A DNA stretch of 64,000 nt from Candidatus Spongiisociaceae bacterium (GCA_965243165.1 OZ251535.1:1281572-1345571), one strand, 5' to 3'. Positions 3,931 through 53,665 are shown, counted from the first letter of the stretch. A program made the numbers and translations. Notes: generated by a model from the sequence alone, not told the origin.

Positions 3931-4505
3931 AGAAGACGAGCGGATAGGCGGAGAGGATAGAAGTTGCCGGCAGACGGCGGGTCGCCCGCCGGGGGTTTCG
4001 CTGTGAGCCAACGCACCCGAACAACCCGGCCGGCCCCTGTCCGCTCGTCCTCCGGCCAGGGCCGGCGGAGGCCGCACTTCCATCCGGCCGCCGAAATCTG
4101 TCACACCCCCCTGATACCTTGGGGCGGTACAGAAACCGCAGCCGGTCCGGATGCTGCGGTCATACAGAGGCCGCTCCGCCCAGGGCCGAGGCTCCAAGGG
4201 CGGGGCGGCCGACCTGGCTGTGCTGAGACGGATCGGGCGCAGGGGGCCGCAGCACGCCCTCTGTGTCCGAAGACGGTGGTTCGGTGGCGGCGGGGGCGGG
4301 GCCCGGCGAAGCCGGGGCGGGGGGCGGAGAACGCGAAAAACCGAAAAGCGGTGTGCTGTTGGGGCTTGGTTCGGTTTGAGAAGACGAGCTGACAGGCAGA
4401 GGGGATAGCGGTTGGTGCTGGTCGGCGGGTTGTCTGCCGGGGGCTTCGCCGTGAGGCCAAGGCATCCGAACAACCTGGCCGGCTCTGTCCGCTCGTCTTC
4501 TGAGG
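3931..4505. repeat. Composite MITE-like repeat cluster (S unit, L unit, S unit) in the intergenic region
   Basis: The ~115 bp S unit has terminal inverted repeats GAAGACGAGCGGATAGG … CCTGTCCGCTCGTCCTC. The ~300 bp L unit (CACCCCCTGATACCTTGGGGCGGTACAGAAACCGCAGCC…GGAGAACGCGAAAAAC) recurs at five other loci in the window in both orientations. Confidence 0.75.
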
Positions 4506-4632
4506 CCGGGTTCTTGGTTGGGAGCGGCCCGCCCCGCCCCCGCCTCGGCCGGCCTCGCGCCGGGCGCCGCCGTTCTGGGCGGGTGGAATCCGCGGATGCC
4601 GTCTCGGGGCGGGGCCCATCGAGGAGCAACAG

Positions 4633-6207
4633 ATGACGGCCGGCGGCGGGGCGGGCGCACCGGCGCTCGAAGTAGTCGGGATGACCAAGCGCTTCGGGCA
4701 GGTAACGGCCTGCGACGAGGTGGACTTCACGCTTCGCCGGGGCGAGATACACGGCGTCCTCGGCGAGAACGGCGCCGGCAAGTCCACCCTGATGCGGGTG
4801 ATCTTCGGCTTGACCCTGGCAGACGAGGGCCTGCTGAAGCTCGACGGACAGCCCGTCCGCATCCTCGACCCCCTGGAGGCGGGGCGGCTCGGCATCGGCA
4901 TGGTGCATCAGCACTACAGCCTGGTGGACGCGCTCACCGTGTGGGAGAACGCGGCGCTGGGGGAGCAGGGCCGCCTCGATCCGGCCGCCACCCGCCGGCG
5001 CATCGCCGAGATATCGGAGAAGTACGGCCTAGAGGTGGACCCCGGCGCCCGGGTGCGCGACCTGCCGGCCGGCATCCGCCAGCGGGTGGAGATAATCAAA
5101 TGCCTGCGCCGCGAGCCGCGCATCATCATCCTCGACGAGCCGACCTCGGTGCTGACCCCCTCCGAGTCGGAGCAACTGTTCGACGTGCTCGCCGAAGGGG
5201 TGAAGAGCGAGCAGTGGGCGGTGGCGCTGGTGAGCCACAAGCTCGACGAGATCCTGCGGGCCACCGACCGGATCACGGTCATGCGGCGGGGGCGGGTGGC
5301 GGCGCGGTATCCGACCGCCCGCGCCGACGCTCCTTCCCTGGCCCGGGCGATGGTGGGCCGCCCGGTGGCGCTGCGGGCGGTAACCGCCGGCCTGGACGCC
5401 GCCCCCGGCCGGGCGGACGGCGGCGCGGGGCCGGATTTCGAGGGCGCCCCGCCGGTGCTGCGGATCGAGGGGGCGTCGGTGAAGGCGGGGGACGGCGCCA
5501 TGCTGTTGGACGGCCTGTCGCTGGAGGTGCGGGCGGGGGAGATCGTGGGGATGGTGGGGGTGGAGGGCAACGGCCAGACCGCCTTGGCCGACGTGATGTC
5601 CAGCCTGCGGGAACTGGACGAGGGCCGGGTGGAGGTGGAAGGCCGGCCGGTCCCCGCCGGCGCGGCGGGCGCCATGGCCAAAGCCGGGGTGTCGGTCATC
5701 CCCGCCGACCGCCATTCGTCGGGGTGTGTGCTGGGCATGACGGTGGCCGAGAACCTGATGCTCTCCCTGATGGACCGCATGCAAAGCCGGGGGCTGCTGC
5801 GGCGGGGCGCCATCCGCCGCAACGCCCTGGAATTGGTGGAGGAGTACGGCATCCTCACGCCCGGCCCGGATGCGCCGCTGGCCAACCTGTCGGGCGGCAA
5901 CCAGCAGCGGGTGGTGCTGGCGCGCGCCCTCTCCGCCGGCCCCAAGGTCCTGGTGGCGCATCAGCCCACCCGGGGCCTCGACGTGGGCGCCATCGAATAC
6001 GTGGGCGACCGGCTGCGCCGCGCCGCCGACGCCGGGCTGGGGGTGTTGCTCATCTCCTCCGACCTGGGGGAGATCTTCGCCTTGGCAGACCGCATCGCCG
6101 TCATCTACCGGGGGCGCATCGCCGGCGAGATGCCCCGCTCCCAACTCGACCTGGAACGCCTGGGGCTGTTGATGGGAGGGGCCGGCGCCGAGGAGGAGGC
6201 GGCGTGA
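4633..6207 (+). CDS. ABC transporter ATP-binding protein with two tandem ABC domains (sugar/nucleoside CUT2-like type)
   Basis: Walker A GENGAGKST, signature and Walker B in the first half; second ABC domain (LSGGNQQRVVLARAL…) in the second half; RBS GAGGAG before ATG 4633. Confidence 0.85.
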   Translation: MTAGGGAGAPALEVVGMTKRFGQVTACDEVDFTLRRGEIHGVLGENGAGKSTLMRVIFGLTLADEGLLKLDGQPVRILDPLEAGRLGIGMVHQHYSLVDALTVWENAALGEQGRLDPAATRRRIAEISEKYGLEVDPGARVRDLPAGIRQRVEIIKCLRREPRIIILDEPTSVLTPSESEQLFDVLAEGVKSEQWAVALVSHKLDEILRATDRITVMRRGRVAARYPTARADAPSLARAMVGRPVALRAVTAGLDAAPGRADGGAGPDFEGAPPVLRIEGASVKAGDGAMLLDGLSLEVRAGEIVGMVGVEGNGQTALADVMSSLRELDEGRVEVEGRPVPAGAAGAMAKAGVSVIPADRHSSGCVLGMTVAENLMLSLMDRMQSRGLLRRGAIRRNALELVEEYGILTPGPDAPLANLSGGNQQRVVLARALSAGPKVLVAHQPTRGLDVGAIEYVGDRLRRAADAGLGVLLISSDLGEIFALADRIAVIYRGRIAGEMPRSQLDLERLGLLMGGAGAEEEAA

Positions 6208-7331
6208 TCCCCGGCGCCCCCCCGCCGCCCGGCGGTTCGGCGGGGGGTTGGCGCGGACGGGCCGAGACGGCCCTGCTGTACCTGCTCAGCATCGGGGGGA
6301 CGCTGCTGATATCGGGCGGCCTGGTGGCCGTTACCGGCAACTCTTGGACGCAGGTGTTGGGCGCTCTGCTGAACGGCGCCTTCCTCGCCCCGGGACGGTG
6401 GGGGAACACCCTGGCGGTGGCGGCGCCCATGCTGCTGGTGGCGCTGGGAATGGTGATCGGGGTCAAGTCCGGAATATTCAACATCGGCCAGGAAGGCCAG
6501 CTGCTGATGGGGGCGATGGCGATGGCGTATGCGGGCACCAAGCTGGCCGGGCCGGGGCCGCTGCTGCTGGCGGGGGGGCTGATCCTCGGAACCCTGGCCG
6601 GGGGGCTGTTCGCCGCCCTGGCGGCGGTGATGCGGTTCCGCCGGGGGGTGCCTGAGGTGATCTCCACCCTGCTGCTGGTGTTCATCGCCTTCCAGATCAA
6701 CGGTTTCGCCATCACCACCGACTGGTTGCTGCGCGACCTCGACCCCAACCGGCCCAGCCGGGCGGTAACCAGCGCCCAGCTGCCGGACGCCGTCCATCTG
6801 CCGGTGATCACCCTGTTCGGCAACGAGTTCCATCTCGGGCTGGTGTTCGCCTTGGCCGCGGCGGTGGCGGCGGCGTTCCTGATGGCGCGCACCTCGATCG
6901 GCTTCAAGCTGCGCCTGCTGGGCAGCAGCCCCCAAGCAGCCCAGAACGCGGGGGTGGCGGTGACCCGATGGGGGAGCGCGGCGCTGTTCGCCTCGGGGGC
7001 GATGGCCGGCTTCGCCGGGGCGGTGATGTTGGCGGGGGGCGCTTCTAGTTCCCGTCTGACCAGCGGGTTCGCCGCCAACTTCGGATGGCAGGGGCTGCTG
7101 GTGGCGCTGCTGGCCCAGAGCCGCCCGTTGCTATGCATTCCCATGGCGGTCGTGTTCGCCGGCCTCCGCACCGGGTCGGGTTTCCTGGCCGCCACCGGCG
7201 TGGACCGCAAGATCGTGGACGTGATCCAGGCGCTGCTGGTGCTGGCGCTGCTGATTCCCCCGGCGGTGCAGTTCATCCGCGACCGGCGCAAGGCCATGGC
7301 AGGCGCCGGCGCCGAGCCGAAGGCGGGCTGA
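6204..7331 (+). CDS. ABC transporter permease (first of two; BMP/nucleoside-sugar type)
   Basis: GTG at 6204 overlaps the ATPase stop (GTGA). Multi-TM hydrophobic protein. It corresponds to the C-terminal in-frame part of ORF 4518..7331, whose N-terminal part is a spurious alternative-frame read-through of the ATPase gene. Confidence 0.75.
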   Translation: MIPGAPPPPGGSAGGWRGRAETALLYLLSIGGTLLISGGLVAVTGNSWTQVLGALLNGAFLAPGRWGNTLAVAAPMLLVALGMVIGVKSGIFNIGQEGQLLMGAMAMAYAGTKLAGPGPLLLAGGLILGTLAGGLFAALAAVMRFRRGVPEVISTLLLVFIAFQINGFAITTDWLLRDLDPNRPSRAVTSAQLPDAVHLPVITLFGNEFHLGLVFALAAAVAAAFLMARTSIGFKLRLLGSSPQAAQNAGVAVTRWGSAALFASGAMAGFAGAVMLAGGASSSRLTSGFAANFGWQGLLVALLAQSRPLLCIPMAVVFAGLRTGSGFLAATGVDRKIVDVIQALLVLALLIPPAVQFIRDRRKAMAGAGAEPKAG

Positions 7332-8266
7332 TGGGCGGCGTGCTGTCCGCGCTGGCGGACATCTTCAGCAGCCCCACCATGTACGGGAGCGCGGTGCGCC
7401 TGGGCGGCTTCCTGGCCTTCGCGGCGCTGGGCGAGCTGGTGGCGGAGAAGGCGGGAACCATCAACATATCGGTGGAGGGGTCGCTCTTGGCGGGGGCCTT
7501 CGGGGGGGCGGTCGCCTACCATCTGACCGGGTCCACCTGGGCGGGGCTGGCGGCTGGGGCGGCCGCCGGGGTTGCGGTCGCCCTGATCCAGGCCAACATG
7601 AGCCACCGCCTGACCGCCGACCAGTTCGTGGTGGGCCTCACCGCCAACGTGCTGGTCCTGGGCCTGGCCGGATACCTGGACGCCCTCATCGATCCGATCT
7701 CCAAGCGGGCGGCGGTCATCGAGATACCGCTGCTCTCGGACATTCCGCTCATCGGCCCGGCCCTGTTCGGCCAGACCTGGCCCACCTACCTGCTGTATCC
7801 GCTGTTCCCTCTCACCTGGTGGCTGCTGCACCGCACCCGTTGGGGCTTGGAGGTGCGCTCGGTGGGCGAAAACCCCCAGGCCAGCGACGTTTCCGGCATC
7901 GACGTGAACAAACGCCGCCGCCAGGCCGTCTACTACGGCGGGGTGCTGGCGGGGCTGGGGGGGGCGTTCCTGGTGCTCGGCCAGGTGGGGAGCTTCGACA
8001 CCGGAGCGGTGGGCGGCCGGGGCTTCATCGCCATCGCCGCCGTCTACTTCGGCGGCTGGACTCTCCGGGGCGCCCTGCTGGGGGCGCTCCTGTTCGGCCT
8101 GGCCGACGCCTTCCGCCTGGCGGTGCCGGTGCTCGGCTACCAGCTCAACGCCCAACTCCTGGCCGCCCTCCCCTATGTCCTGACCATCGCCGTCATGTAC
8201 TTCATCACCAAACCCTTCCGCCAACCTGCCGCCCTGGCCCACCCCTTCATCCGCGGCCTCCGATGA
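7331..8266 (+). CDS. ABC transporter permease (second of two)
   Basis: ATG 7331 overlaps the upstream stop (ATGA coupling); hydrophobic; motif RWGLEVRSVGENPQASDVSGIDV typical of the cytoplasmic loop of CUT2/BMP-type permeases. Confidence 0.75.
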   Translation: MGGVLSALADIFSSPTMYGSAVRLGGFLAFAALGELVAEKAGTINISVEGSLLAGAFGGAVAYHLTGSTWAGLAAGAAAGVAVALIQANMSHRLTADQFVVGLTANVLVLGLAGYLDALIDPISKRAAVIEIPLLSDIPLIGPALFGQTWPTYLLYPLFPLTWWLLHRTRWGLEVRSVGENPQASDVSGIDVNKRRRQAVYYGGVLAGLGGAFLVLGQVGSFDTGAVGGRGFIAIAAVYFGGWTLRGALLGALLFGLADAFRLAVPVLGYQLNAQLLAALPYVLTIAVMYFITKPFRQPAALAHPFIRGLR

Positions 8267-8330
8267 GCTCCGGCTGCTCCGCGTTCGCATCCTGCTTGGA
8301 CAGCGCGGCTGTCTTCTGGGTGATGACGGC

Positions 8331-9053
8331 ATGATATTTTCATATCACCCGCAGATCATCGAGCGGTATCCGACCATCCGGGCGGGGGTGGTGTATGCGG
8401 CGGGGTTGGTGAACGGCCCCAGCCCGGAGGGGTTGTTGGAGGAATACCGTGCTCAGCAGCGTGCGTCCGCGGCCGAGCTGGCGGGGAGGTCGTTGGCGGA
8501 TATTCCTTCTCTCGGGGCTTGGCGGAGGGTGTTCTCCAGCTTCGGAGTGAAACCCACGCAGTACCGTTCGGCGGCCGAGGCGCTCCTCCGGCGGCTGTCC
8601 AAACACGGGGATATCCCGTCCATCAACTCGGCGGTGGACATCGCCAACCTGGTGTCGATCCGACGGCGGCTTCCGGTTGCGGCCATGGATCAGGCGTCGG
8701 TGGACGGATCGACGACGGTGCGCTTCGCCGAGGGAGGCGAGCAGTTCACCGGCCTGGGGAGCCGCCGGACAGCGGCGCCGCCGCCCGGCGAGGTGATCTT
8801 CGCGGACGAGGCCGGGGTGGTGAGCGCCCGCCGCTGGTGCTGGCGGCAGAGCGCCCAGAGCGCGGCCGGGCCTGACACCGCCGTTGCCCTGTACACGGTG
8901 GAAGGCCACCACCCAGACGCCGAAGCAGAGACCGCCTCGGCCCTCGACGACTTGATCCGATTGCTCGAGAAACACCAACCCGGGGCCCGGTTGGAATCAG
9001 CCTTGCTCTCGCCGGACAACCCCGGTTTCACCCCTCGGCGGCCCGCCCGGTAA
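8331..9053 (+). CDS. B3/4 (Phe-tRNA-synthetase-beta-like tRNA-binding) domain protein
   Basis: 240 aa with PTQYRSAAEALLRRL…PSINSAVDIANLVS pattern reminiscent of COG3382 B3/4-domain proteins. Its last ~60 bp are duplicated upstream of giant-gene copy 2. Confidence 0.45.
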   Translation: MIFSYHPQIIERYPTIRAGVVYAAGLVNGPSPEGLLEEYRAQQRASAAELAGRSLADIPSLGAWRRVFSSFGVKPTQYRSAAEALLRRLSKHGDIPSINSAVDIANLVSIRRRLPVAAMDQASVDGSTTVRFAEGGEQFTGLGSRRTAAPPPGEVIFADEAGVVSARRWCWRQSAQSAAGPDTAVALYTVEGHHPDAEAETASALDDLIRLLEKHQPGARLESALLSPDNPGFTPRRPAR

Positions 9054-9111
9054 GGCTGGGAGGTTGCCCGCGCCGGCGCGGCGGGCTTGTCTGGCGGCTT
9101 TTCGGTTGTGC

Positions 9112-9140: not shown

Positions 9141-9204
9141 TGTGGTTGTTGACCGTTGTCCCCTTGCTTCGGTGAGGGGTTGGCTTGATGGAGGAGGTGG
9201 CCTG

Positions 9205-36418: not shown

Positions 36419-36699
36419 GAACCGCCCCCCGGACCTGCGCAACCCGGTCCCAGCCCCCCGGATCGAGGCGGCCGGGTCAGAAGCCTCCGGTGAAGCGGCG
36501 GGTGTGGATGTAGAGGCCGATAACGGGCAGATGAAATGCACGCCTGCATCCCTTCTGACCTGGGGTGATCACAATGAGATACTGTCTGATCAGAACTTGA
36601 GGTTCACCTGCCGGGTGAACGCCGCCGCTTCGGGGGTCTGGGATGTACAGGCCGGTGAACAGGCGCGGCCAGCGGCCCGCCCCGCGTGGATATGAATAA

Positions 36700-37650
36700 T
36701 CGGGCTAGAGACCCCTAAAAATCCGATGCCCCCTCAAGAGGGACGAGCAGACAGAGCCGACCAGGTGATTTGGATGCGTTGGCCTCACGGCGAAACCCCC
36801 GGCAGAAAACCCGCTGACCAGCAACGACCTCTATCCCCCTCTGCCATCAGCTCGTCTTCTCGAACTGAACCAATCCGAGCAGCAAACTGAACCCAACCCG
36901 AGCAGCACCCCGATTTTCGCGTTCTCCGCCCCCCGCCCCGGCTTCGCCGGGTCTCCCGCCCCCGCCGCCGCCGATCCATTGTTTTCGGGCGCTGGGGGCG
37001 TGTTGGGGCCCTCTGCGCTCGATCCGCCTCGGCACAGCCAGGTTGGCCGCCTTGCCCTTGGAGTTTTGGCTCTGGGCGGAGCGGCCTCTGTATGACCGCA
37101 GCATCCGGATCGGCTGCGGTTTCTGTACCGCCCCAAGGTATCAGGGGGCTGTGACAACTTTCGGCAGCCGGATGGAAGATGATGAAATGAACGGAACCGG
37201 GCCTGAGCACACACACACTGTTTTTCGCGTTCTCTGCCCCCCGGCCCCGGCTTCGCCGGGTCTCCCGCCCCCGCCGCCTCCGATCCATTGTTTTCGGGCG
37301 CTGGGGGCGTGTTGGGGCCCTCTGCGCTCGATTCGCCTCGGCACAGCCAGGTTGGCCGCCTTGCCCTTGGAGTTTTGGCTCTGGGCGGGGCGGCCTCTGT
37401 ATGACCGCAGCATCCGGATCGGCTGCGGTTTGTGTCCGCCTCAAGGTATCAGGGGGGTGTGACAACTTTCGGCAGCCGGATGGAAGGCGGGCTCCGCCGG
37501 CCCTGGTTGGAGGACGAGCGGATATGGGCTGACCAGGTTGTTCGGGTGCGTTGGCCCGGCGGCGAAATTCCTGGCAGGCAACCCCGCCGTCTGCCGGCAA
37601 ACTTCTATCCTTCTCTGCCTATCCGCTCATCTTCTAAGCCTGATGGCCGA
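36700..37650. repeat. MITE-like repeat cluster: S unit (reverse), two tandem L units (reverse, ~36880-37160 and ~37165-37470), S unit (reverse)
   Basis: Shares landmark sequences with the other copies (TTTTCGCGTTCTCCGCCCCCC…, …CCCCAAGGTATCAGGGGG(C/G)TGTGACA). S-unit terminal inverted repeats GGAGGACGAGCGGATATGGG … GCCTATCCGCTCATCTTC. Confidence 0.75.
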
Positions 37651-37652: not shown

Positions 37653-39647
37653 TCACGCCGCTAAGGACAGCAAAAGGGCTCGCGAGAGCAAGGCTGCCAT
37701 CTGCCCTCTGGTGATGGGTTGGTCGGGGCAATAGCGGAGCGGGGCGGTTGCACACCCGTCACCGATACCCGCCGCTTTCAGGGCTTCTGCGGCTCGGACA
37801 ACTCGGTCGGGTTGATCCGACATGTCGGCGAACAACCCTTGCACCCTTACGGAAGGAGTGATGAGGTCGAAGATGGAGGCGATCATTTCGGCTATTTCTG
37901 CTCTGGTTACTATCCCGTCCGGATTGAACTCACCGCCCGGCGGCCGCATTACTTCCCTCATTATTTGCTGCTCAACCGCCCACTCCATATAATGTTGGTA
38001 ATTTTCTTCGTAGTCTACGCCTTCTATCTCGTTGGGCATTATCCAGCTTACTTCCCGCGGAAATGACTCCAAAATTGCCGCCGCCCTATACAGGAAGGCC
38101 GCCATCTGCTTTCGGGTGATAGTATCATCCGGGCAGAATCTGCCGCCGCCGCATTCTTGGGCTATCCTGTCGGAAACTATATGTTCTATATATGGTTCGT
38201 GTTCATGGCAGTCGTCATCCGAGAACTGTCCGGCAGGTTTCAAGCGGCCTTCGGAGTCCAAAAGCAGGTCGTGGAGCTCTACTGGGATGGCGCTGCTCAA
38301 CTGATTGGGATGCAGATTCAGGAATATCAGGCCTGGGATTTGGCTGAGTTCGCGGGGGACAGCGCCGGTCAGCTGATTGCAGCCCAGATGCAACCAACCC
38401 AGATTGGTTAGTTTCGATAATTCTGGTGGTATACTGCCTGTCAACTCATTGTGGTACAGATTGAGGGTTCGTAGATTGGTCAGTTGTGAGAGTTGGGTCG
38501 GTATAGGTCCGGTCAATCTATTTCTATCCAGCCCCAGATCTTCAAGGTTGGTTAGTCGGGCGAGCTCGGCTGGTATGGGTCCGGTTAGCCGGTTGTCTCC
38601 CAGCCATAGAGCACTGAGGTTCGTAAGCTGAGAGAGTTGTTTGGGCAGCGGTCCGGTCAAATTGTTTCCCCCCAGTGCGATTGCTGATAGGTCGGTCATT
38701 CGGCCAAGTTGAGGTGGTATGGAGCCGGTCAGGTTGTTGTTGTACAGATAGAGAATACCCAGGTTGGTGAGTTGTGAGAGCTCTGGCGGTATAGAACCGA
38801 CTAATTGATTGTCGCCTAGATCGAGGATTGACAGATTGGCGAGCTGGGACAGTTCTTTGGGTATAGGCCCGGTCAATCGGTTGCCTTGCAATATCAGCAT
38901 TACTAAGTTGGTCATTTGAGATAGCTCGACGGGTATAGGTCCGCTCAGACGGTTGCCGGACATGTTAGAGGCTGTCAGCTTGGTTAGTTGGCCCAATTGG
39001 GCTGGGACAGGCCCCGATAGTTTGTTTGCGAACAGATGCATGGCGGTCAGATTGGTCAGGTTTCCGAACTCACTGGGGATAGGACCGGTCAGCTCATTCA
39101 GGCCTAGATTCATCGTATGCAGTTTGGTGAGGTTTCCGAGCTGAGGCGGGATGGGGCCGGTCAGGTCGTTCTTGCGAAGGTAAAGCAATTCCAGGTTGGT
39201 GAGCCGTCCGAGTTCGGCTGGGATAGCGCCCGAGTGGTTTCCGCGCAGGTGCAGCACTTCGAGGTGGGTCAGGTCTCCGATTTGGGGCGGGATGGGGCCG
39301 GCAACGTCGCTCACTCTGAGTTCGGAGACCCGTTGGTTCTTCATCTCAACGCCGATCCACGAGGTGATCGGTGCGTTGTCGCCTCTGCCCCATTGCCGCA
39401 GGTAATGGTCGGCCTCAAGGCCGGCGTTGTCAGGGTGGCGGGTCCAGACATTGCGGACGGCGACCAATGCCCGGCAGTCATCGACCAGCCCCTGAGGGGA
39501 GGGGTCGTCGACGAAGGTCCCGTCGTAGCAACCGAGAGCGCTGAGGTCGGGGATGGGGTTGCTCTGCGCACCGGCGGACAGCACCAAGGCGGCGGTCAGT
39601 CCGGCGGCGCCCAGGATCGGGGCAGCGGGACAGCGGATTTTCTTCAT
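37653..39647 (-). CDS. Secreted leucine-rich-repeat protein (plant-type LxxLxxLxLxxNxLTGPIPxxLGxLTN repeats) with C-terminal SLH domains
   Basis: 664 aa with signal peptide (MKKIRCPAAPILGAAGLTAALVLSAGA), about 14 consecutive 24-aa LRRs, and C-terminal SLH-like motifs (FCPDDTITRKQMAAFLYRAA; RYCPDQPITRGQMAALLSRAL). Confidence 0.85.
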   Translation of the reverse strand: MKKIRCPAAPILGAAGLTAALVLSAGAQSNPIPDLSALGCYDGTFVDDPSPQGLVDDCRALVAVRNVWTRHPDNAGLEADHYLRQWGRGDNAPITSWIGVEMKNQRVSELRVSDVAGPIPPQIGDLTHLEVLHLRGNHSGAIPAELGRLTNLELLYLRKNDLTGPIPPQLGNLTKLHTMNLGLNELTGPIPSEFGNLTNLTAMHLFANKLSGPVPAQLGQLTKLTASNMSGNRLSGPIPVELSQMTNLVMLILQGNRLTGPIPKELSQLANLSILDLGDNQLVGSIPPELSQLTNLGILYLYNNNLTGSIPPQLGRMTDLSAIALGGNNLTGPLPKQLSQLTNLSALWLGDNRLTGPIPAELARLTNLEDLGLDRNRLTGPIPTQLSQLTNLRTLNLYHNELTGSIPPELSKLTNLGWLHLGCNQLTGAVPRELSQIPGLIFLNLHPNQLSSAIPVELHDLLLDSEGRLKPAGQFSDDDCHEHEPYIEHIVSDRIAQECGGGRFCPDDTITRKQMAAFLYRAAAILESFPREVSWIMPNEIEGVDYEENYQHYMEWAVEQQIMREVMRPPGGEFNPDGIVTRAEIAEMIASIFDLITPSVRVQGLFADMSDQPDRVVRAAEALKAAGIGDGCATAPLRYCPDQPITRGQMAALLSRALLLSLAA

Positions 39648-39689: not shown

Positions 39690-40285
39690 ACCCTAACCCG
39701 ATAAGAGGACGAGCGGACAGGGCTGACCAGGTTGTTGGATGCGTCGGCCTCACGGTGAAACCCCGGCAGACAACCCGCCGGCCCGGCAACGACATCTATC
39801 CCCCTCTGCCTGTCAGCTCGTCTTCTCGACTCAAACCGAAACCAAGCCGGGGGGGGGGGGAGCGCATTCGTTTTTCGCGTTCTCCGCCCCCCGCCCCGGC
39901 TTCGCCGGGTTTCCCGCCGCCGCCGCCGAACCACCGTCTTCGGACACCGAGGACGCGTTGCCGCCCCCTGCGCCCGATCCGCCTCGGCACAGCCAGGTCG
40001 GCCGCCCCGCCCTTGGAGCCTCGGCTCTGGGTAGAACGGCCTCTGTATGACCGCAGCATCCGGATCGGCTGCGGTTTCTGTACCGTCCCAAGGTACCAGG
40101 GGGGTGTGACAGATTTCGGCAGCCGGCTGGAAGGCGGCGCCGCCGGCCCTGGTCAGAGGACGAGCGGCAGGAACCGACCAGGTTGTTCGGGTGCGTTGCC
40201 CGGCGGCGAAACCCCCGGCGGGCAACCCGCCGTCTGCCGACAACTTCTATCCCTCTGCCTGTCTGCTCGTCTTCTGATCCTGATC
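39690..40285. repeat. MITE-like repeat cluster: S (reverse), L (reverse, with an 11-G homopolymer at 39851-39861), S (reverse)
   Basis: Same repeat families as 3931-4505; S-unit terminal inverted repeats present. Confidence 0.75.
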
Positions 40286-40340
40286 GTTCACGAGAGGGGG
40301 GGGGGGCGGGCAGATGAAGTGAATTATCGGGGTTGAAGAA

Positions 40341-44275: not shown

Positions 44276-44281
44276 GGCGGC

Positions 44282-45282: not shown

Positions 45283-45289
45283 GGTTCCC

Positions 45290-45977: not shown

Positions 45978-46059
45978 CCGGGTTTCCGAAAGATTCGAAT
46001 ATCTTTCTCGAGAATAGGCCGATTTCGGCCTTTATTGCCGAAAGATTGTAGAATCTTTC
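45978..46059 (+). promoter_or_regulatory. Paired-palindrome element copy A: two GAAAGAT-N6-ATCTTTC sites 62 bp apart, with a conserved GGCC…GGCCTTTATT spacer
   Basis: GAAAGATTCGAATATCTTTC at 45978-45997 and GAAAGATTGTAGAATCTTTC at 46040-46059. Confidence 0.6.
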
Positions 46060-46079
46060 GGAGGCCGCTGCATGAAGCC

Positions 46080-46615
46080 CTGTGCGCAGGTACCGTCTGG
46101 GCTTCGACCAGGCCAACACACCCAAAAACAACCTGACCAGCCTTACCGCCCGCCCTCTCGAACCCAAACCAAACCGAAAACCCAAGCCCGAAGCCAGCAC
46201 ACCGTTTTTCGCGTTCTCCGACCCCCGCCCCGGCTTCGCCGGGCCCCGCCCCCGCCGCCGCCAAACCATCGTTTTCGGACGCCGGGGGCGCGTTGCGGCC
46301 CCCTGCGCCCGATCCGCCTCGGCACAGCCAGGTCGGCCGCCTCTCCCTTGGAGCCTCGGCCCTGGGCGGAGCGGCCTCTGTATGACCGCAGCATCCGGAT
46401 CGGCCGCGGTTTCTGTACCGAAACAAGGTATCAGGGGGGTATGACACAAATCGGCAACCGGACGGAAGGCGGGCTCCGCCGGCCCCGGTTATCCATCTCA
46501 GAGACGCGCGGATGAGCGTCGACCAGGGTGTTCAGGTCCGCCGGGCGGCCAAAGAACCCCTGGCAGGCACCCCGCCGGCCGCCGGCGGCTTCTACCCTCC
46601 GCCCGCCTGTCCGCG
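46080..46615. repeat. L unit (reverse) followed by a degenerate S unit
   Basis: Landmarks TTTTCGCGTTCTCCGACCCCC… and …AACAAGGTATCAGGGGGGTATGACA. Confidence 0.7.
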
Positions 46616-46631
46616 CTTCTGCTCATAGCCG

Positions 46632-46722
46632 AAAGATTGTACAATCTTTCCGAAAAATATGCCTTTCTGGGCTTTATTACAGAAAGATTGTCATATCTTT
46701 CGCGGGCGCCGAACGATTGTTC
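46632..46722 (+). promoter_or_regulatory. Paired-palindrome element copy B (includes a perfect 20-bp palindrome GAAAGATTGTACAATCTTTC)
   Basis: Sites at 46632-46651 and 46683-46702, followed by a CCGAACGATTGTTC half-palindrome. Confidence 0.6.
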
Positions 46723-46729
46723 TACCGCC

Positions 46730-46930
46730 GCGGTGGTCGTACAGGCGAGCAACAGGGAGGCGCGGACGGCGGGGAACCCTCGATCTGGCGGTGGTGAACG
46801 GGATGGTGGTGCTGGGGAGCGGACGCCATCGGGTGGAGTGGGGGTCAAGGACGGCAAGGCGGCGGCGCCGGCGCCCGAGGAGATGCTTCCCGCCGCTGGC
46901 GGAGGCGGGCCTCGAGGGCTCGGGTCTGCG
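46730..46930 (+). pseudogene. Degenerate ~180 bp duplicate of the translation-initiation region and first ~45 codons of the hydantoinase-like gene (compare 48795-48990); start codon lost (ATG to ACG)
   Basis: About 85-90% identity by eye with GGTCGTACAGGCGAAGCAACAGGGAGGCGCGGATGGCGGGG…CTCGATCTGGCGGTGGTGAACGGGACGGTGGTGCTGGGGAGCGGGCGCCATCGGGTGGG…. Confidence 0.65.
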
Positions 46931-46994
46931 GTGAAAGATATTACAATCTTTTCCCAATAAAGGCATTTTCGGCCTTTATTTCGGAAAGATATTA
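46924..46994 (+). promoter_or_regulatory. Paired-palindrome element copy C (at the 3' end of the regulator gene)
   Basis: GAAAGATATTACAATCTTTT and GGAAAGATATTAATATCTTTCC. Confidence 0.55.
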
Positions 46995-48648
46995 ATATCT
47001 TTCCAGCGGGCGGGCCGGGGGGTTGCCGGCAGGGTAGTAGCGCCGGGCTCTGGTTTGCCCTTTAGCGCGGGCGAGGCCGGCCCTTACAAGATCGTTCAGC
47101 AGATCTCGGACCACTCCCGTTTGTTCGCCCAACAGCTGGCCGCCTTCCACGGTGGAGATGCTTCCACGGCGGACGATCTCGTCGAGAAGGGTCTGCCGCC
47201 GGCGGCTGCGGGCCTGGATGCCGGCGGCGCCGGTTCGCATCACGACCTCGTCGGAGAGCACGTAGCGGGCGCCGCCCCGAACGCCCACCCGTTTGAGCAT
47301 GCCCTTCGCGGCGGCGCCTGCCAGGATTTCGCTTGCGTCGTTGCCGGGCATCAGCTCCCGCAGGCGCCTGGGGGTGACCGATCCCTCCGTGCGGGCGGTC
47401 ACCAGCGCCCGGCGCTCCTCGACGGTCATGGGGTGGTCGGCAAAGAGCTGGAGCCAGATCTGGTCCTCCACGCCGACCAGGGCGCGGTTGCGAAGCGTGA
47501 CGGTCACGGAGGAAGGGGTGGGATCGAAATAGGGGGGCTCCAGAAGCCTGGCCTCCATCTCTCGGAACATGAGTTCCACCCCGTCCCCGTATTCCTCCAC
47601 GAGACCCATGGTTTTCAGCACGCCCATGATCCGGGGGTTGCGGCTGTAGTGCTCGGTCCGGATGTTGTCCACCGTTATGTGGGCGGGCAGCGGCCCCGGA
47701 CTGGTTATCTCCACGCGGTCGTCCCAGACCGTGATGTCGATGGTGGCGCCCGCCAGGCTGTAGTCCCGGTGGGCGAGCGCGTTGGTTACGGCCTCTCGGA
47801 GCACTTCCTGCGGGTACTCCGGGATGGTTTCCCGCCTCACGCCGATCACGGCTTCGAACTGCATGGTGTGATGGGCGATCATCTGCAGGCACTTGTCCAC
47901 GACGAGGGGCAGGGGGCCTTTGATCTCCGCCCGTTCGCTGGTCGGCCCGGGACCGGGGCCGACCCCGGTGCGGCGCACGAACTGCACTCTGGCGGCGGAT
48001 GTGTAGGCGGTGGGGTCTTTGGCGAACAGGACGGCCCCCGCCGTCAACACCTGCACATCCGCCGCTCCTGCGGACGGTTCTGCGACCCCGAGGTCGACGA
48101 GGGCCCGCGCCAGGCTCGACCGCTTTGCGGCCTTTCTGCCGTCGGCCTTCAGCGCCCGGTTCACGACGCCCAGGTCGAAGTCCCCCGGGTCGAAGTATTC
48201 GAGGTGTTCCTCCTCGCCGGGGTGCTCGGAGCGGGCCGCGACGAACCGTCCGAAGGCGTCGCCCCGCAGCGGCTGCGAATCGCCCCCGACGCGCCGCAGG
48301 AGCCTGCCGTCGGGGGTGGTGACGATCCGTTTCCGGACCTCGGGCACCGAGGTGATGGTCAGCTCCACGCCTTCGACGCGGACCGATCCGACCTGAACCT
48401 CGACATCGCATTCGGCCGCGAATCGGTGGATGCGGTCCTGGGTTCTCTGGCTGAGGGGGCACCCGACGATGGTGCGGTCGTCGTCCACGCCGTGGATGAT
48501 CAGCCCTCCGTCTGTCATCGCCATCGCCGGGATGGCGTCGAGCATCCCCCTGGACACCCCACGCTTGAAATCCAGTTCGGCGTGCTCGCGCCGGCCGAAC
48601 CGCTCCCAGAACTCGTCGGCGGTCATCTCGTCGGGGATGTCGGTGATG
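46992..48648 (-). CDS. Putative transcriptional regulator of the Schlafen-like AlbA_2 (divergent AAA) + ATPase-like (HATPase_c_4) + HTH family (COG2865-like)
   Basis: MTSITDIPDEMTADEFWERFGRREHAELDFKRG… N-terminal AlbA_2-like region. Central region VTNALAHRDYSLAGATIDITVWDDRVEITSPGPLP is typical of these ATPase-like domains. RBS GAGGAAG before ATG at 48648. The ORF track extends further 5' only by reading through the palindrome element. Confidence 0.55.
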
Positions 48649-48667
48649 GATGTCATGTCTTCCTCGG

Positions 48668-48760
48668 GAAAGATATTACAATCTTTCCGGAGAATACGCC
48701 TGTTTGGGCCTTTATTGCCGAAAGATTGTAATATCTTTCGCGGGCCGAACAATTGTTCGG
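48668..48760 (+). promoter_or_regulatory. Paired-palindrome element copy D, between the divergent regulator and the hydantoinase-like operon (candidate operator/promoter region)
   Basis: GAAAGATATTACAATCTTTC (48668-48687), GAAAGATTGTAATATCTTTC (48720-48739) and the perfect palindrome CCGAACAATTGTTCGG (48745-48760). Confidence 0.6.
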
Positions 48761-48850
48761 CTGTAAGCCCCGGCTTCGCCGGGTGCGCCTCCGGCCGTCC
48801 TGGGTTAGGCTTGGCGGCGGTCGTACAGGCGAAGCAACAGGGAGGCGCGG

Positions 48851-50461
48851 ATGGCGGGGGCACCCCTCGATCTGGCGGTGGTGAACGGGACGGTGGTGCT
48901 GGGGAGCGGGCGCCATCGGGTGGGGGTGGGGGTCAAGGACGGCAAGGTGGCGGTGCTGGCGCCCGAGGAGATGCTTCCCGCCGCCGCCCGCACCATCGAC
49001 GCCAAGGGCAACTACGTGCTGCCGGGGGTGGTGGACTCCGAGGCGCACCCCGGCTGCTACGTGCCCTTCGACTACGACATGAAGACCGAGTCGAGGGCGG
49101 CCGCCGCCGCCGGCATCACCACCTGGGGGATCCAGGCGCCCACCACCCGGCTCGGCACCAAACCCTTCAAGGAGGTCGTCGCCAAGGCGGATGTGGTGTC
49201 GTTCAACGAGTCGTTCCCCTCGGGGCGGGATGTGATAAACGAGCACAGCCACGTCGACGCCTACCTGACCTACATGCTCGAAACCGACGAGCACGCCCGC
49301 GAGATACCCCAGTACGCCGAGGAGCACGGGGTCACCTCCTTCAAGCTCTACCTGCAGACCCGCTCCATGAAGGGCATGTCCGACGACGACGACACCAACT
49401 GGCCGTCCCGCCGCGCCGGACTCGGCACCGGCATCGACGACGGCACCGTGTTCCTGGTCATGGAGGAGACCGCCCACCTCGGCTATCCGGGGATCGTCCA
49501 CATCCACCCGGAGAACTGGGAGATCGGGCGGATATTCGAAGAGCGGCTGCGGGCCGGCGGGCGCACCGACTTCGGGGCGTGGACGGACCGCTCGCCCGAC
49601 CTCATGGAGGCGCACCATATCCGCTCCTACGCCTACCTGGCCATGCAGACCCCCGGACGCGTGCCCCTCTACCTGCAGCACTGCACCACCCGGCTCTCCT
49701 TCGAGGAAGTGGCCAAGGCCCGCGCCGAGGGGCTGGAGCTCTACGCCCAGACCGGTCCGCCCTGGCTGTGGGCCGAACCCGAATACGGCTGGCGCATCAA
49801 CGTCCCCCTCCGCCGCCGCGACAACATCGAGGCGCTGTGGGTGGCCCTCGCCGAGGGGATCGTGGACGTGGTCGGCTCCGACCACGTGGTCGGGTGGGAG
49901 CCGGCCTCCTACGAGCAGATGTACAACCCGGTCATCTGGGACTGCCGCACCGGATTCTCCCGGGTGGAGCTGTTCCTGCCGGTGTTGCTCTCCGAGGGCG
50001 TCAACAAGGGGCGCATCAGCCTGGAGCGGGCGGTGCAGGTCAGCAGCGAGAACCCGGCCAAGACCTCCGGGCTGTGGGGCAGGAAAGGGTCGCTGCTGCC
50101 GGGGTTCGACGCCGACTTCGTGATCATCGACCTGGGGCGGGAGGTGAAGGTCGGCAAGGAGCACATCAACACCCGCTCCGGCTGGTCGATCATGGAAGGC
50201 CACACCTTCACCGGCTGGCCGGTCATGACCATCCTGCGGGGCGAGGTGAGCGCCGAGTGGGCCGACGACTCGCCGGGGATGCGCCCGGTGGGGGCGCCGC
50301 GCGGCGAGTACCTGCCCCGTTCCCTGCGCCCCAAGCGGGGGGTGATCGACACCAGCCCGGTGCGGGCGGCCCCCGCCGACCGCTGGTTGGCCGACGATTT
50401 CCTCCGCCCCGGTTTCTCCCCCGAGACCGCCAAGTACCAGGGCGTCAGAGAGGGAGGCTGA
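48851..50461 (+). CDS. Cyclic amidohydrolase (D-hydantoinase/dihydropyrimidinase/allantoinase-like, amidohydrolase superfamily)
   Basis: 536 aa; N-terminal LAVVNGTVVLG…VKDGKVAVLAP…IDAKGNYVLPGVVDSEAHP and internal metal-binding His motifs typical of DHOase/hydantoinase-type enzymes. Confidence 0.75.
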   Translation: MAGAPLDLAVVNGTVVLGSGRHRVGVGVKDGKVAVLAPEEMLPAAARTIDAKGNYVLPGVVDSEAHPGCYVPFDYDMKTESRAAAAAGITTWGIQAPTTRLGTKPFKEVVAKADVVSFNESFPSGRDVINEHSHVDAYLTYMLETDEHAREIPQYAEEHGVTSFKLYLQTRSMKGMSDDDDTNWPSRRAGLGTGIDDGTVFLVMEETAHLGYPGIVHIHPENWEIGRIFEERLRAGGRTDFGAWTDRSPDLMEAHHIRSYAYLAMQTPGRVPLYLQHCTTRLSFEEVAKARAEGLELYAQTGPPWLWAEPEYGWRINVPLRRRDNIEALWVALAEGIVDVVGSDHVVGWEPASYEQMYNPVIWDCRTGFSRVELFLPVLLSEGVNKGRISLERAVQVSSENPAKTSGLWGRKGSLLPGFDADFVIIDLGREVKVGKEHINTRSGWSIMEGHTFTGWPVMTILRGEVSAEWADDSPGMRPVGAPRGEYLPRSLRPKRGVIDTSPVRAAPADRWLADDFLRPGFSPETAKYQGVREGG

Positions 50462-50464
50462 GCC

Positions 50465-51226
50465 GTGGCGGTCTGGGACGACGTTATAACCGAGACCGAC
50501 CGGGCGGTTTTCGAGGAGGCCGGCTGGGGCCGCCGGGCCGGATACGGAGAGCGCCCGGCGGTCATGGTGATCGACGTCAACTACAACTTCTGCGGCGACC
50601 GCGCCGAGCCGATCCTCGATTCGATCAAGAGATGGCGGTATTCCTGCGGGCCGGCCGCCTGGGAACGGGGGATCCCCGCCATCCGGAAGATACTGGAGGC
50701 GGCCCGCCGCAAGCGCCTTCCGGTCGTCTACACCACCAACCCCCGCCGGGCCGACGGCTTCGACCTGGGGGTGTGGACGCTGAAGAGCACCCGCGCCGAG
50801 GACGAGGTGGACGTCATGGGGCACAAGGGCAACGAGATCGTGGCCGAGGTGGCGCCCCGGGAGGGCGATCTGTTCATCGAGAAGCGCAAGCCCTCCGCCT
50901 TCTTCGGCACCCCTTTGGTCAGCCACCTCAACATGATGGGGGCCGATTCGCTCATACTCACCGGGACCACCACCAGCGGCTGCGTGCGCGCCAGCGCGGT
51001 GGACGCCCTGTCCTACGACTTCAGGGTGACCATTCCCCACGAGGCTGTGTTCGACCGGGGCGGGGCGTCCCACAAGATCGCCCTCTTCGACCTGCACATG
51101 AAGTACGTGGACGTCACCGATCTCGCCGATGTCCTCGCCTACCTGGAAGGTCTGCCCGCCGGTCTCTTCGACCGCACCTATCCGCCCGCCGCCCAAGCCG
51201 CCCGGGCCGCCCGGAAGGAGTCCTGA
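50465..51226 (+). CDS. Isochorismatase-family cysteine hydrolase (N-carbamoylsarcosine-amidase-like)
   Basis: 253 aa; PAVMVIDVNYNF…, SLILTGTTTSGCVRASAVDALSYDFRVTIPHEAV (catalytic Cys context). Confidence 0.75.
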   Translation: MAVWDDVITETDRAVFEEAGWGRRAGYGERPAVMVIDVNYNFCGDRAEPILDSIKRWRYSCGPAAWERGIPAIRKILEAARRKRLPVVYTTNPRRADGFDLGVWTLKSTRAEDEVDVMGHKGNEIVAEVAPREGDLFIEKRKPSAFFGTPLVSHLNMMGADSLILTGTTTSGCVRASAVDALSYDFRVTIPHEAVFDRGGASHKIALFDLHMKYVDVTDLADVLAYLEGLPAGLFDRTYPPAAQAARAARKES

Positions 51227-51807
51227 TGGGCCTCGATTTCCCGATCCGCAAGTTCATCGTCCAAGCCGAGGTCGAGCACAGCCGGGAAGGCGTCGCCGCC
51301 GACCCGCCCCTCTGCAAGGCGGTGGCGGCGGCCGTGATCCGCAACCCCTACGCCGGCGCCTATCACGAGGACCTGTCGGAGGCGGTCGAGTTCTCCGCCG
51401 GCCTCGGCCCGTTGCTGGGGGACATGGTCCTGCAGGCCCTCGGCGCGCCGGTCGCCTCCTACGGCAAGGGCGGGATCGCCGGCCTGGACGGCTCGCAGGA
51501 GCACGCGGTGATGTTCCTTTCCACCGCCTTCGCCGACCCCTTCCGCGAGTTCGTCGGGGGCGGGGCGGCTTGGATTTCGTCGGCCACCGTCACCGCCTCG
51601 GCGGGGGCGCCGCTCACCATCCCGCTCGCCCACAAGGACGCCCTCTACGTACGCGACCACTACGACGCCGTCACCCTCTACCCGGGCGACGCGCCCCGCC
51701 CCGACGAGGTGGTGGTGGCGGTGGCCGTCGCCAACCGGGGCCGCCTCAACGCCCGGCTGGGCGGCCTGGCCCCCGAAGACGCGGTCGGCAAGGACGGTCT
51801 GCGCTGA
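51226..51807 (+). CDS. AA_synth/DUF1185 family protein (so-called amino-acid-synthesis family, frequently encoded next to hydantoinase-type genes)
   Basis: ATG 51226 overlaps the upstream stop (ATGA). About 193 aa MGLDFPIRKFIVQAEVEHSREGVAADPPLCKAVAAAVIRNPYAGAYHEDL… This is the C-terminal in-frame part of the artefactual long ORF 48430..51807. Confidence 0.55.
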   Translation: MGLDFPIRKFIVQAEVEHSREGVAADPPLCKAVAAAVIRNPYAGAYHEDLSEAVEFSAGLGPLLGDMVLQALGAPVASYGKGGIAGLDGSQEHAVMFLSTAFADPFREFVGGGAAWISSATVTASAGAPLTIPLAHKDALYVRDHYDAVTLYPGDAPRPDEVVVAVAVANRGRLNARLGGLAPEDAVGKDGLR

Positions 51808-51830
51808 CATGAACCGCCGGGGTTGACGGG

Positions 51831-53027
51831 GTGGCGGGGCCGCAGCGCACCGCGGTGGTGAACATAGGGGCGCTGGTCACCGGCGACCTGTCCCGGCCGA
51901 CGGCCGAAGCCGACAGCCTGCTCATCGAAGACGGGCGGATCGCGGCGGTCGGGGCGGGCTTGGGGGCGGAGGGCGCCGACCAGGTGGTGGACGCCAACGG
52001 CGCCACCGTGGGGCCGGGCCTGATCGACTCCCACTGCCATGTGGTGATAGGGGACTACACCCCCCGCCAGCAGACGGTGGGGTTCTTGAGTTCCTACGTG
52101 CACGGGGGGATCACCCAGGCGATTTCGCCCGGCGAGATCCACGCCCCCGGACGGCCGCACGACGCCCACGGGGTGGTGGCGCTGGCCGTTCTCGCCCAGC
52201 GGTCGTGGAGCAACTACCGGCCCAACGGCATGAAGGTGCACGGGGGCGCGGTGGTGCTGGAGCCGACCCTGGAGGAGGGCCACTTCCAGTACATGGCCGA
52301 CCAGGGGATCCGCCTCGCCAAGTTCGGGTTCGGCCTCTACGGCGACCCGGCCGACGGCCTGCCCCAGGTCCGGGCCGCCCAGGAGATCGGCATCAAGGTC
52401 ATGTGCCACTCGGGCGGCGCCTCCATCCCCGGCTCGAAGCCCATCACCTCCGAGCACCTCATGCTGCTCCGCCCCGACGTGTGCGGCCACATCAACGGCG
52501 GCCCCACCTCCCTCGACGACGAAGGGCTGGAGGAGATCATCGCCTCCACCGATCTGGTGCTGCAGATCGTTCAGGCCGGCAACCTGCGCAGCGCCCTCCG
52601 CATCGTCGGCCTCGTCCTCGAGCACGGCGCCGAGGGCCGGGTGATCCTCGGTTCCGACACCCCGACCGGCACCGGGGTCATGCCGCTGGGGGTGTTGAAG
52701 ACCATGGCCGAGCTGTCATCGCTCACCGGCGCCGACCCGGCGGTGGTGTGGGCCTGGGCTTCGGGGGCGACGGCCGACGTCTACGAGCTGGAGGCCGGGA
52801 AGATCGAGGCGGGCCGCCCGGCCGATCTGGTGATAGCCGACGCCCCCTGGGGTTCCTACGGGGGCGATGCGCTGGGGGCCCTGGCCCGCGGGGACATCCC
52901 CGGCATCAGCGCGGTGATCATCGACGGGCGGATCAGGGCCCTCCGCAGCCGCAACACCCCCGCCGCCGCGCGCCGGGCAACGGTAACGCCCGAGATCGGC
53001 GAGCTCCCGGGATCGGCCCACGTCTGA
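51831..53027 (+). CDS. Metal-dependent amidohydrolase (amidohydrolase-1/enamidase-like)
   Basis: GTG start; VDANGATVGPGLIDSHCHV metal-binding motif; 398 aa. Confidence 0.7.
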   Translation: MAGPQRTAVVNIGALVTGDLSRPTAEADSLLIEDGRIAAVGAGLGAEGADQVVDANGATVGPGLIDSHCHVVIGDYTPRQQTVGFLSSYVHGGITQAISPGEIHAPGRPHDAHGVVALAVLAQRSWSNYRPNGMKVHGGAVVLEPTLEEGHFQYMADQGIRLAKFGFGLYGDPADGLPQVRAAQEIGIKVMCHSGGASIPGSKPITSEHLMLLRPDVCGHINGGPTSLDDEGLEEIIASTDLVLQIVQAGNLRSALRIVGLVLEHGAEGRVILGSDTPTGTGVMPLGVLKTMAELSSLTGADPAVVWAWASGATADVYELEAGKIEAGRPADLVIADAPWGSYGGDALGALARGDIPGISAVIIDGRIRALRSRNTPAAARRATVTPEIGELPGSAHV

Positions 53028-53149
53028 GCCGGGCGGCTCCAAGGGCTGCCCCGGCAAGAACCTCGTGTAAGAAAAAGCGCGGACAGGCGGGCGGAGGGCA
53101 GAAGCCGCCGGCGGCCGGCGGGTTGCCTGCCGGGGGTTCTCCGGCCGCC

Positions 53150-53665
53150 CGGCAGACCTGAACACCCCGGTCGACGCTCATCCGCGCGTCTCTGAGATGA
53201 ACAACCGGGGGGTCGGCGGAGCTTCGGCTTCCGTCCGGCTGCTGATTTGTGTCACACCCCCCTGATACCTTGGAGCGGTACATAAACCGCAGCCGATCCG
53301 GATGCTGCGGTCATACAGAGGCCGCTCCGCCCAGAGCCGAGGTTCCAAGGGCGGGGCGGTCGACCTGGCTGTGCCGAGGCAGATCGGGCGCAGAGGGAGG
53401 CAACGCGCCCTCGGCGCCCGAAGACGGTGGTTCGGAGGCGGCGGGGGAGGGGGCCCGGCGAAGCCGGGGCGGGGGGCGGAGAACGCGAAAAACAGTATGT
53501 TGCTTCGGGCTTGGGTTTGCGGTTTGGTTTGGGTTCGAGAGGGCGGGCGGTAGGGGCTGACCAGGTTGTTTTGGGTGCGTTGGCCTGGTGCGAAACCCGG
53601 GCGGCGCCCGCTGACCCGCTGTAACTTCATTCCTTCTGCCTATCCGCTCGTCTTGATCACGGCTG
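53150..53665. repeat. MITE-like repeat cluster: degenerate S, L (forward, ~53230-53520), S (reverse)
   Basis: CACACCCCCCTGATACCTTGGAGCGGTACATAAACCGCAGCC…GGAGAACGCGAAAAAC; the S unit ends with GCCTATCCGCTCGTCTTG. Confidence 0.75.

Follow-up and report, generated by a model that had tools for sequence, protein, structure and literature searches.

A lineage-restricted, non-coding composite repeat with inverted-repeat ends in Acidimicrobiia: a candidate non-autonomous element

Introduction

A 64,000-nucleotide stretch of a Candidatus Spongiisociaceae genome (GCA_965243165.1, OZ251535.1:1281572-1345571; the window, with positions counted from its first letter) carries intergenic repeats built from a short module, S, and a longer module, L, arranged as S-L-S. 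What kind of element is this? A preliminary description took S and L to be two nested families resembling miniature inverted-repeat transposable elements (MITEs), with a structured RNA as an alternative for L. Here we ask whether they are two families or one, and whether what they form is mobile, is an RNA or a protein gene, or is a gene-end signal maintained by the host. We favor the explanation that S and L together form one composite interspersed element, S-L-S, which is non-coding and non-autonomous, bears terminal inverted repeats (TIRs), and is mobilized in trans, and we place the probability of this at roughly 0.55.

There are practical and biological reasons to be interested in such a repeat. 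At gene boundaries, S-L-S could terminate, stabilize, or drive transcription. It also provides a clean test case of a TIR-bearing element that lacks target-site duplications (TSDs) and has a strongly conserved non-coding core.

Architecture of the repeat unit

The unit is ~570 bp long and consists of a conserved ~290-bp L core between two ~120-bp S modules. L is made up of four GC-rich blocks that can form hairpins, with a G/T-rich tail after them. Each S is bounded by its own 17–20-bp inverted repeats (AGAAGACGAGCGGAYAGG), and the TIR stems form in predicted folds of S. Because each flanking S has its own inverted repeats, the outermost termini of the unit are always inverted repeats, reading AGA(A/G)GACGAGC...GCTCGTC(T/C)TCT. 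Searching the window by BLAST with seed copies revealed six copies of L with a mutual identity of 85–91% (E 1e-95 to 1e-111). There are also nine clear copies of S and one degenerate remnant, each directly beside an L. These modules fall in five clusters, every one of them intergenic, and the clusters occur in both orientations.

The copy number and identity of both S and L are far above chance. The sequence GAGAACGCGAAAA occurs six times in the window compared with 0.00 expected, and the TIR GAAGACGAGCGGAYAGG, with up to three mismatches allowed, has 14 matches compared with 0.49 expected. The repeats reported in the preliminary description are thus real, numbering six L and ten S with the degenerate one included, although they lie in five clusters rather than the six that had been counted. 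The clear TIRs attributed to S hold up in general but are degenerate in clusters 4 and 5. Likewise, the hairpin ACCGCAGCCGGTCCGGATGCTGCGGT is present in L copies as had been described, but the supposedly invariant motif GAGAACGCGAAAAAC ends ...AAAATC in one L copy.

Several observations bear on whether S and L are independent. A profile search for S in 1.52 Mb (the window and the fetched loci) gave 21 matches, all of which adjoin an L. No orphan TIRs were found there outside of known S modules, the sole extra match being an S fragment inside the cluster of metagenome locus L083. In clusters 1–3, S copies at the same position are 85–87% alike (5′ compared with 5′ and 3′ compared with 3′), whereas copies from different positions are 78–80% alike. 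We refer to the 5′ subtype as Sa and the 3′ subtype as Sb; the Sb copies have in common a mismatch, GCTGA, in the left repeat. The same Sa-L-Sb order is seen in metagenome loci L083, L086/L087, and L088. Clusters 4 and 5, together with loci L001 and L085, make up a second subfamily, type II, in which the S modules are more diverged and the 3′ S is inverted at the same L junction, an order that L001 and L085 repeat. The L copies of type II have subtype-specific bases in common, so that S and L subtypes co-vary, and the linker sequence at the S-L junction is conserved within each type. Because the S subtypes are position-specific and the linkers are conserved per type, it appears that whole S-L-S units were copied rather than S and L separately. 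Judged from these sequences, S and L behave as modules of one composite unit rather than as two independent nested families. We place the two-family picture of the preliminary description weakest among the serious options, given that no S was found without an adjacent L and that the 5′ and 3′ S are position-specific and co-vary with the L subtype.

One version of this picture is that S is an independent MITE family that, through a target preference, inserts site-specifically beside L in either orientation, with L being a separate, older element or gene. This would explain why the 3′ S can face either way at one L-tail junction, why each S has a complete TIR pair, and why extra S fragments lie next to a full S in L083. 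It would also accommodate the L copies that deviate from the standard arrangement. Cluster 2 has the variant form S-L-L-S, with a 337-nt period and no S between the tandem L copies, and the orthologous loci L002 and L084 have a divergent L (78% identity) that lacks a 5′ S and starts right after a stop codon. Locus L001 has another variant, S-L-S-L-S. However, no solo S was found in the 1.52 Mb searched, and 5′- and 3′-specific S subtypes are common to different genomes, which points to the copying of whole units. The two orientations of the 3′ S can also be explained without a new insertion if S flips between the inverted repeats that bound it. We regard an independent S as decidedly unlikely.

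Copies in the window

Cluster 1 lies on the plus strand. Its 5′ S (Sa, 3931–4051) begins directly after the TAA stop codon of a substrate-binding-protein gene and is followed by L with its G/T-rich tail (4052–4379, conserved core 4087–4341) and by a 3′ S (Sb, 4379–4502) in direct orientation. Cluster 2 is on the minus strand and begins with a 5′ S (Sa, 37511–37635) located 18 nt downstream of the stop codon of a gene for a leucine-rich repeat (LRR) protein with an SLH domain. This is followed by the first L (37220–37506) and second L (36883–37178, delimited by BLAST) of the tandem pair and a 3′ S (Sb, 36741–36860). Cluster 3, also on the minus strand, consists of a 5′ S (Sa, 40157–40275), an L core (39870–40152) with a tail at 39827–39869, and a 3′ S (Sb, 39706–39826) that lies 59 nt upstream of the start of the same LRR-SLH gene. 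The type II clusters have a diverged 5′ S subtype, Sc. In cluster 4 both Sc (46490–46623) and the type II L (46170–46488, delimited by BLAST) are on the minus strand, and the 3′ S is a degenerate remnant (46080–46169, no strand assigned) that was missed by the S profile. In cluster 5 the 5′ S (Sc, 53066–53190) and L (53210–53539, comprising a core at 53210–53493 and the G/T-rich tail) are on the plus strand, and the 3′ S (53540–53654) is on the minus strand, inverted relative to the 5′ S as is typical of type II. Thus, the S-L-S architecture in both orientations, as first described, applies generally, except that cluster 5 has an inverted 3′ S and cluster 4 only a degenerate remnant of one.

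Host lineage and distribution

The G+C content of the window is ~68%. It encodes an ABC-ATPase with 85% identity to its counterpart on OY282370.1 (locus L003), the chromosome of an uncultured member of the Acidimicrobiia and the closest reference available, and the next relatives are metagenome-assembled genomes named Acidimicrobiia, Candidatus Spongiisociaceae, or Candidatus Spongiisocius. From the names of these relatives and the presence of LRR/SLH and Calx-beta genes in the window, the host is likely to belong to a sponge-associated lineage.

A 27-mer that is invariant in the six L copies of the window, and in nearly every L copy recovered outside of it, was absent from 185,579 species-representative genomes (one per species), OY282370.1 included. 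Neither the exact 27-mer nor a gapped 29-base pattern had a match in the JGI metagenomes, and blastn searches with whole clusters gave no match among plasmids and phages. Further copies came to light only indirectly, when L was translated and the translations were used to fish for spurious open reading frames (ORFs) in public protein sets. One L frame led to P0001 and P0002, and a full HMMER scan with another frame led to seven more singleton proteins. The contigs behind these proteins (loci L001, L002, and L083–L088) all belong to one ENA metagenome series and have a G+C content of 62–72%. They contain nine more full L copies, plus two that are cut off at contig ends, representing eight further independent loci on nine contigs; L002/L084 and L086/L087 are orthologous pairs. 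When 80 loci (1.3 Mb) from related genomes were searched with L and S profiles, none was found except for a weak match in L003 (2359–2445, minus strand). This matches the 3′ third of L (E = 2e-5) and lies just downstream of a radical-SAM gene. It might be a relic, a distant relative of L, or a chance match.

Our literature search on MITEs in sponge Acidimicrobiia found nothing relevant. We regard S-L-S as a new, lineage-restricted repeat family, and nothing found so far points to a benefit to the cell. Its host lineage is one for which metagenomes are the sole source of sequence, and S-L-S breaks short-read assemblies, as seen from the two contigs that end inside L. The density of the repeat is five clusters in 64 kb in the window and ~1 per 15–20 kb in the metagenome contigs. 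Should the unit move in the way proposed here, the repeat would be very dense, extrapolating to possibly 100–200 copies, or 3–4% of a ~3-Mb genome.

Evidence for and against mobility

Window positions 1–3929 and 4631–9034 are collinear with L003, with nucleotide identities of 78–88%. Between the same two genes, the spacer is ~104 bp in L003 compared with 700 bp in the window, where it includes the S-L-S unit of cluster 1, and the insertion begins directly after the stop codon. L003 has an empty site at this position, which supports mobility of the unit; the junction of this sole empty site cannot be aligned. The flanks of different copies are unrelated and similarity ends at the S termini, and two metagenome contigs break off within L, both of which also favor mobility. 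The lack of the invariant 27-mer in the L003 chromosome fits this as well. Segmental duplication as the source of the copies was rejected because of the unrelated flanks and sharp boundaries.

At several loci, the outer end of S-L-S touches or overlaps the neighboring gene's stop codon (window 3928–3931; L002 9950–9953; L086 3506; L087 130; L088 758). The element ends read T(A/C/G)AGAAG and CTTCT(A/C/G)A and so can supply a stop codon themselves. The gene stop at cluster 1 is TAA, and L003 has TAG there.

We propose that S-L-S is, or once was, moved as a whole by a transposase that is encoded elsewhere in the genome and recognizes the S termini, much as the outer ends serve to move a composite transposon or a mobile insertion cassette. 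Recombination would afterwards have produced the tandem forms S-L-L-S and S-L-S-L-S, and flipping of the 3′ S between its own inverted repeats would have produced its two orientations. Copies are concentrated a short way past the 3′ ends of genes, usually in the same orientation as the gene, at positions where insertions would be tolerated.

Several results weigh against this explanation. In seven copies with both flanks, we detected no consistent direct repeat of 2–10 bp within ±4 nt of the ends. A lone 7-bp TSD-like match in L083 belongs to a conserved extension of the S end that is also found in two window copies. Pfam scans detected no transposase in the window, which agrees with the preliminary description. 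That description had also pointed to a cognate transposase elsewhere as something to look for, and searches of the ~160 kb of sequence that bears L and of 1.3 Mb from related genomes revealed neither a transposase nor a parent insertion sequence (IS) with the same TIR. In two pairs of related metagenome strains the orthologous sites are both filled, giving no sign of recent polymorphism. Furthermore, the L of L002/L084, without its 5′ S, indicates that L can persist outside of the full composite. The conservation of L also has to be considered. Identity between orthologous loci is 95.4% in L, ~93% at third codon positions, and 90.3% in the remainder of the spacer that holds L, making L at least as conserved as coding DNA between these loci. 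The invariant positions of L are clustered, with a longest run of 18 that was reached in only 80 of 20,000 shuffles. A purely selfish, decaying element need not show such blockwise conservation. The view of these repeats as MITE-like, non-autonomous elements stands as far as the TIRs, the non-coding nature, and the empty site are concerned, but without TSDs they fall outside the strict definition of a MITE.

Some of these same observations would be expected if S-L-S were non-mobile punctuation similar to REP or BIME sequences, that is, host-maintained protein-binding sites, terminators, or mRNA stabilizers at gene ends that were spread and homogenized by recombination or gene conversion. The lack of TSDs and of a transposase, the blocky conservation, the orientation bias, and a 26-bp near-perfect palindrome in L are all consistent with this, as is the location of copies at gene 3′ ends, often abutting the stop codon (cluster 1, L086/L087, L088, and, in L002, L itself). 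However, the invariant 27-mer is absent from the 3.0-Mb chromosome of the closest relative, and no full L or S was present in the 21.6 kb of that chromosome that we examined. Both results count against a housekeeping role, which one would expect to find conserved. Sharp ends defined by TIRs and flanks that are unrelated also fit poorly, S is not a short palindrome of the REP type, and scans of two clusters showed no hairpin followed by a T run in L, a lone match in cluster 5 being at chance level. We consider punctuation of this kind very unlikely.

Coding potential of L

The preliminary description held that the elements are non-coding and intergenic and that they seed spurious Arg/Gly-rich ORFs. 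Our results agree with this. No reading frame is kept across the L copies, which differ by indels of 1, 2, 3, and 34 nt, the last being an insertion in L002. The G+C content of L is flat over codon positions (0.67–0.77), whereas real genes of this genome are expected to be strongly biased. A Pfam scan of ORFs across L gave no match. In public protein sets, L copies have been called as P0001–P0007, P0009, and P0010, which are singleton, Arg/Gly/Pro-rich proteins of 170–270 aa. Judged from the sequence of L, these are annotation artefacts, and the repeat thus seeds spurious Arg/Gly/Pro-rich proteins in public databases. That L encodes a small Arg/Gly/Pro-rich protein might be argued from the long open frames on both strands and from the proteins that public gene callers predicted there. 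But the frames are not conserved, codon-position G+C is flat, there is no Pfam match, and the predicted proteins are all singleton clusters. The broken frames, flat G+C, and lack of a Pfam match all but rule out protein coding by L, and we give the idea practically no chance.

Possible RNA function of L

The main rival explanation is that L is transcribed as a functional RNA, which is possible but unsupported and is compatible with a mobile element. According to this, L would be a small-RNA gene or a cis-acting RNA element on the forward strand with its own extended –10-type promoter (TGnTAnnnT at TGATACCTT), and the S modules would merely flank or disseminate it, or serve as terminators or processing hairpins.

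RNAalifold applied to 15 L copies gave four hairpins (P1–P4) with 61 pairs, 37 of which never vary, leaving little power for detecting covariation. Consistent with an RNA, the forward strand of one window copy has a predicted fold of –137.4 kcal/mol (z = –3.7) compared with –113 kcal/mol (z = –1.9) for the reverse strand, and the L of L002 has forward and reverse z scores of –1.6 and –0.55. Conservation is blocky, with ~21% of stem columns varying compared with ~59% of unpaired columns. The 34-nt insertion in L002/L084 is itself palindromic and lies at the tip of the second hairpin (P2), which it lengthens rather than disrupts. As noted above, orthologous L copies are also more alike than the rest of their spacer. 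By contrast, no covariation was found on either strand. Compensatory changes occur at none of the 61 pairs, and the covariation score is 0.052 compared with 0.056 for shuffles. Some copies have stem mismatches that are G-U on the forward strand, whereas in other copies it is the reverse strand that has the G-U, a pattern expected from neutral transitions, and a conserved C6 run does not co-vary with its predicted G-run partner.

The candidate promoter gives a similarly divided picture. The T, A, and final T of TACCTT are invariant in 17 of 17 copies, and TGATACCTT fits an extended –10 element. L002 reads TGATATGTT, in which the substitutions (TATGTT) are at degenerate positions. The 7 nt after TACCTT are the most variable stretch of L, resembling a discriminator, and L is co-directional with the gene just upstream in nine of 11 independent loci. 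However, the TG of the candidate element is lost in two of the 17 copies. Consensus scans found no sigma-70-type promoter and no relevant terminator in the clusters scanned. Nothing in Rfam 15 matched the window at gathering level, with matches at E up to 10 being at chance level, and no tRNA or tmRNA genes were found in the window. The suggestion that L is a structured RNA family therefore gained no support from either Rfam or covariation, on data with low power to exclude it. Overall, we think it unlikely that L is an RNA gene or cis-acting RNA. A more specific scenario is that L is a ~220–260-nt structured RNA of sponge-associated Acidimicrobiia with an internal extended –10 promoter that was spread by S to ~1 copy per 15–20 kb, and that pairs of S-L-S units could mobilize host genes such as the LRR-SLH gene. 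We view this scenario as more doubtful again.

The LRR-SLH gene and other repeats

The LRR protein gene with the C-terminal SLH domain (37653–39647, minus strand) has a G+C content of ~58%, which is below that of its surroundings. It is bracketed by the two same-orientation S-L-S units of clusters 2 and 3, which in turn are flanked by full and mini copies of a third repeat, T. This arrangement looks like a putative composite transposon and is no more than suggestive of movement. Two units around a eukaryote-like surface-protein gene hint at a route by which symbiosis genes could be shuffled.

The G homopolymers mentioned in the preliminary description were confirmed as a 12-nt run (39849–39860) in the tail of the cluster 3 L and an 11-nt run (40296–40306). 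They lie inside and just outside, respectively, the S-L-S unit upstream of the LRR-SLH gene. In other L copies the position of the 12-nt run is occupied by mixed sequence. It is possible that these runs are a site of slipped-strand phase variation for this surface protein.

The T repeat is ~180 bp long with the core GGGCGGGCAGATGAAATA.GCGCCCGCATCCCTTCTGACCTGGGG...GAATAATCGGGG. Copies are found in the window at 36524–36704 and 40289–40340 (internally deleted), in L001 at 7043–7213, and in L002 at 2428–2526. T adjoins S-L-S clusters three times and occurs alone once, in L002. A fourth repeat, P, is an AT-rich ~78-bp hairpin unit with two 20-bp palindromes (GAAAGATTGTANAATCTTTC) around GGCCTTTATT. 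It is present at 45988–46067, 46631–46708, 46933–47011, and 48668–48747, and two of these copies directly bracket cluster 4. Direct repeats of ~300 bp (46631–46896 and 48668–48984; 76–96% identical) flank an AlbA_2/HATPase_c_4 gene at 46992–48863. P and these ~300-bp repeats resemble arrays of operators or a further small mobile element.

Two further regions of the window stand out. Between 9216 and 36361 there are four tandem ORFs of ~2,100–2,300 aa with a ~7-kb period that are 85–100% identical in blocks. They have a strong positive GC skew of up to 0.37 and weak matches to SLH and Calx-beta. Synteny with L003 ends at 9034, just before this array, and because it stops there the array is probably lineage-specific. 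The region from 60001 to 64000 has a G+C content of 50–52% compared with 65–72% elsewhere, contains an NMT1/THI5-like gene (60179–62299), and may be foreign DNA.

Comparison with known elements

We compared S-L-S with the classes of repeat that it could belong to. REP, BIME, or REPIN sequences were rejected because the 17–20-nt S termini are not palindromic, the S interior is asymmetric, and there is no Y1-transposase-like gene in the window. Palindrome-associated elements of the IS200/IS605 type (PATEs) and omega-RNA were rejected because TIRs are present, the hairpins at either end of L have unrelated sequences, and there is no match to the HEARO or IS605-orfB families of Rfam. Integron attC sites were rejected because no GTTRRRY cores were seen by inspection.

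Bacterial MITEs such as the Correia/NEMIS elements of Neisseria, ERIC, and RUP are short, non-coding, multi-copy, intergenic sequences with TIRs that are presumably mobilized in trans. They are often at gene ends and are able to form hairpins in transcripts. Compared by description rather than by sequence, S-L-S is likewise short, non-coding, multi-copy, and intergenic and has TIRs. At ~570 bp it is within the 50–600-bp range of strictly defined MITEs, and its copies are dispersed and show presence/absence. Unlike MITEs, it is at their upper size limit, has no TSD in the seven copies, has no known parent IS (neither the window nor the 1.5 Mb of fetched loci yielded one with the same termini), and has ends that are ~120-bp modules with their own TIR pairs.

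RLEP of Mycobacterium leprae is a dispersed non-coding repeat of several hundred bp that has a conserved core, lacks a transposase, and prefers gene 3′ ends. S-L-S resembles it in being a non-coding repeat at gene 3′ ends in an actinobacterial, host-associated genome, again without a transposase, but the host class of S-L-S is Acidimicrobiia. RLEP is not known to have inverted-repeat termini or sequence similarity to S-L-S.

Like BOX of Streptococcus pneumoniae and the enterobacterial BIMEs, S-L-S is intergenic, has partially complementary terminal modules that enclose a central one, and varies in module copy number (S-L-L-S, S-L-S-L-S). Unlike these, its modules are 3–8 times longer, S is not a REP palindrome, no RAYT-like gene was seen, and there is no sequence relationship. 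Like mobile insertion cassettes, such as MIC231 of Bacillus cereus, and composite transposons, it has two TIR-bearing end modules around a passenger. In contrast to these, the passenger L has no coding capacity and is conserved more strongly than any other part, and the end modules lack a transposase. S-L-S is bounded by TIRs, has no transposase of its own, and carries a non-coding passenger. Its way of working resembles that of a MITE or a mobile insertion cassette, although no parent is known and we assign it to no named family.

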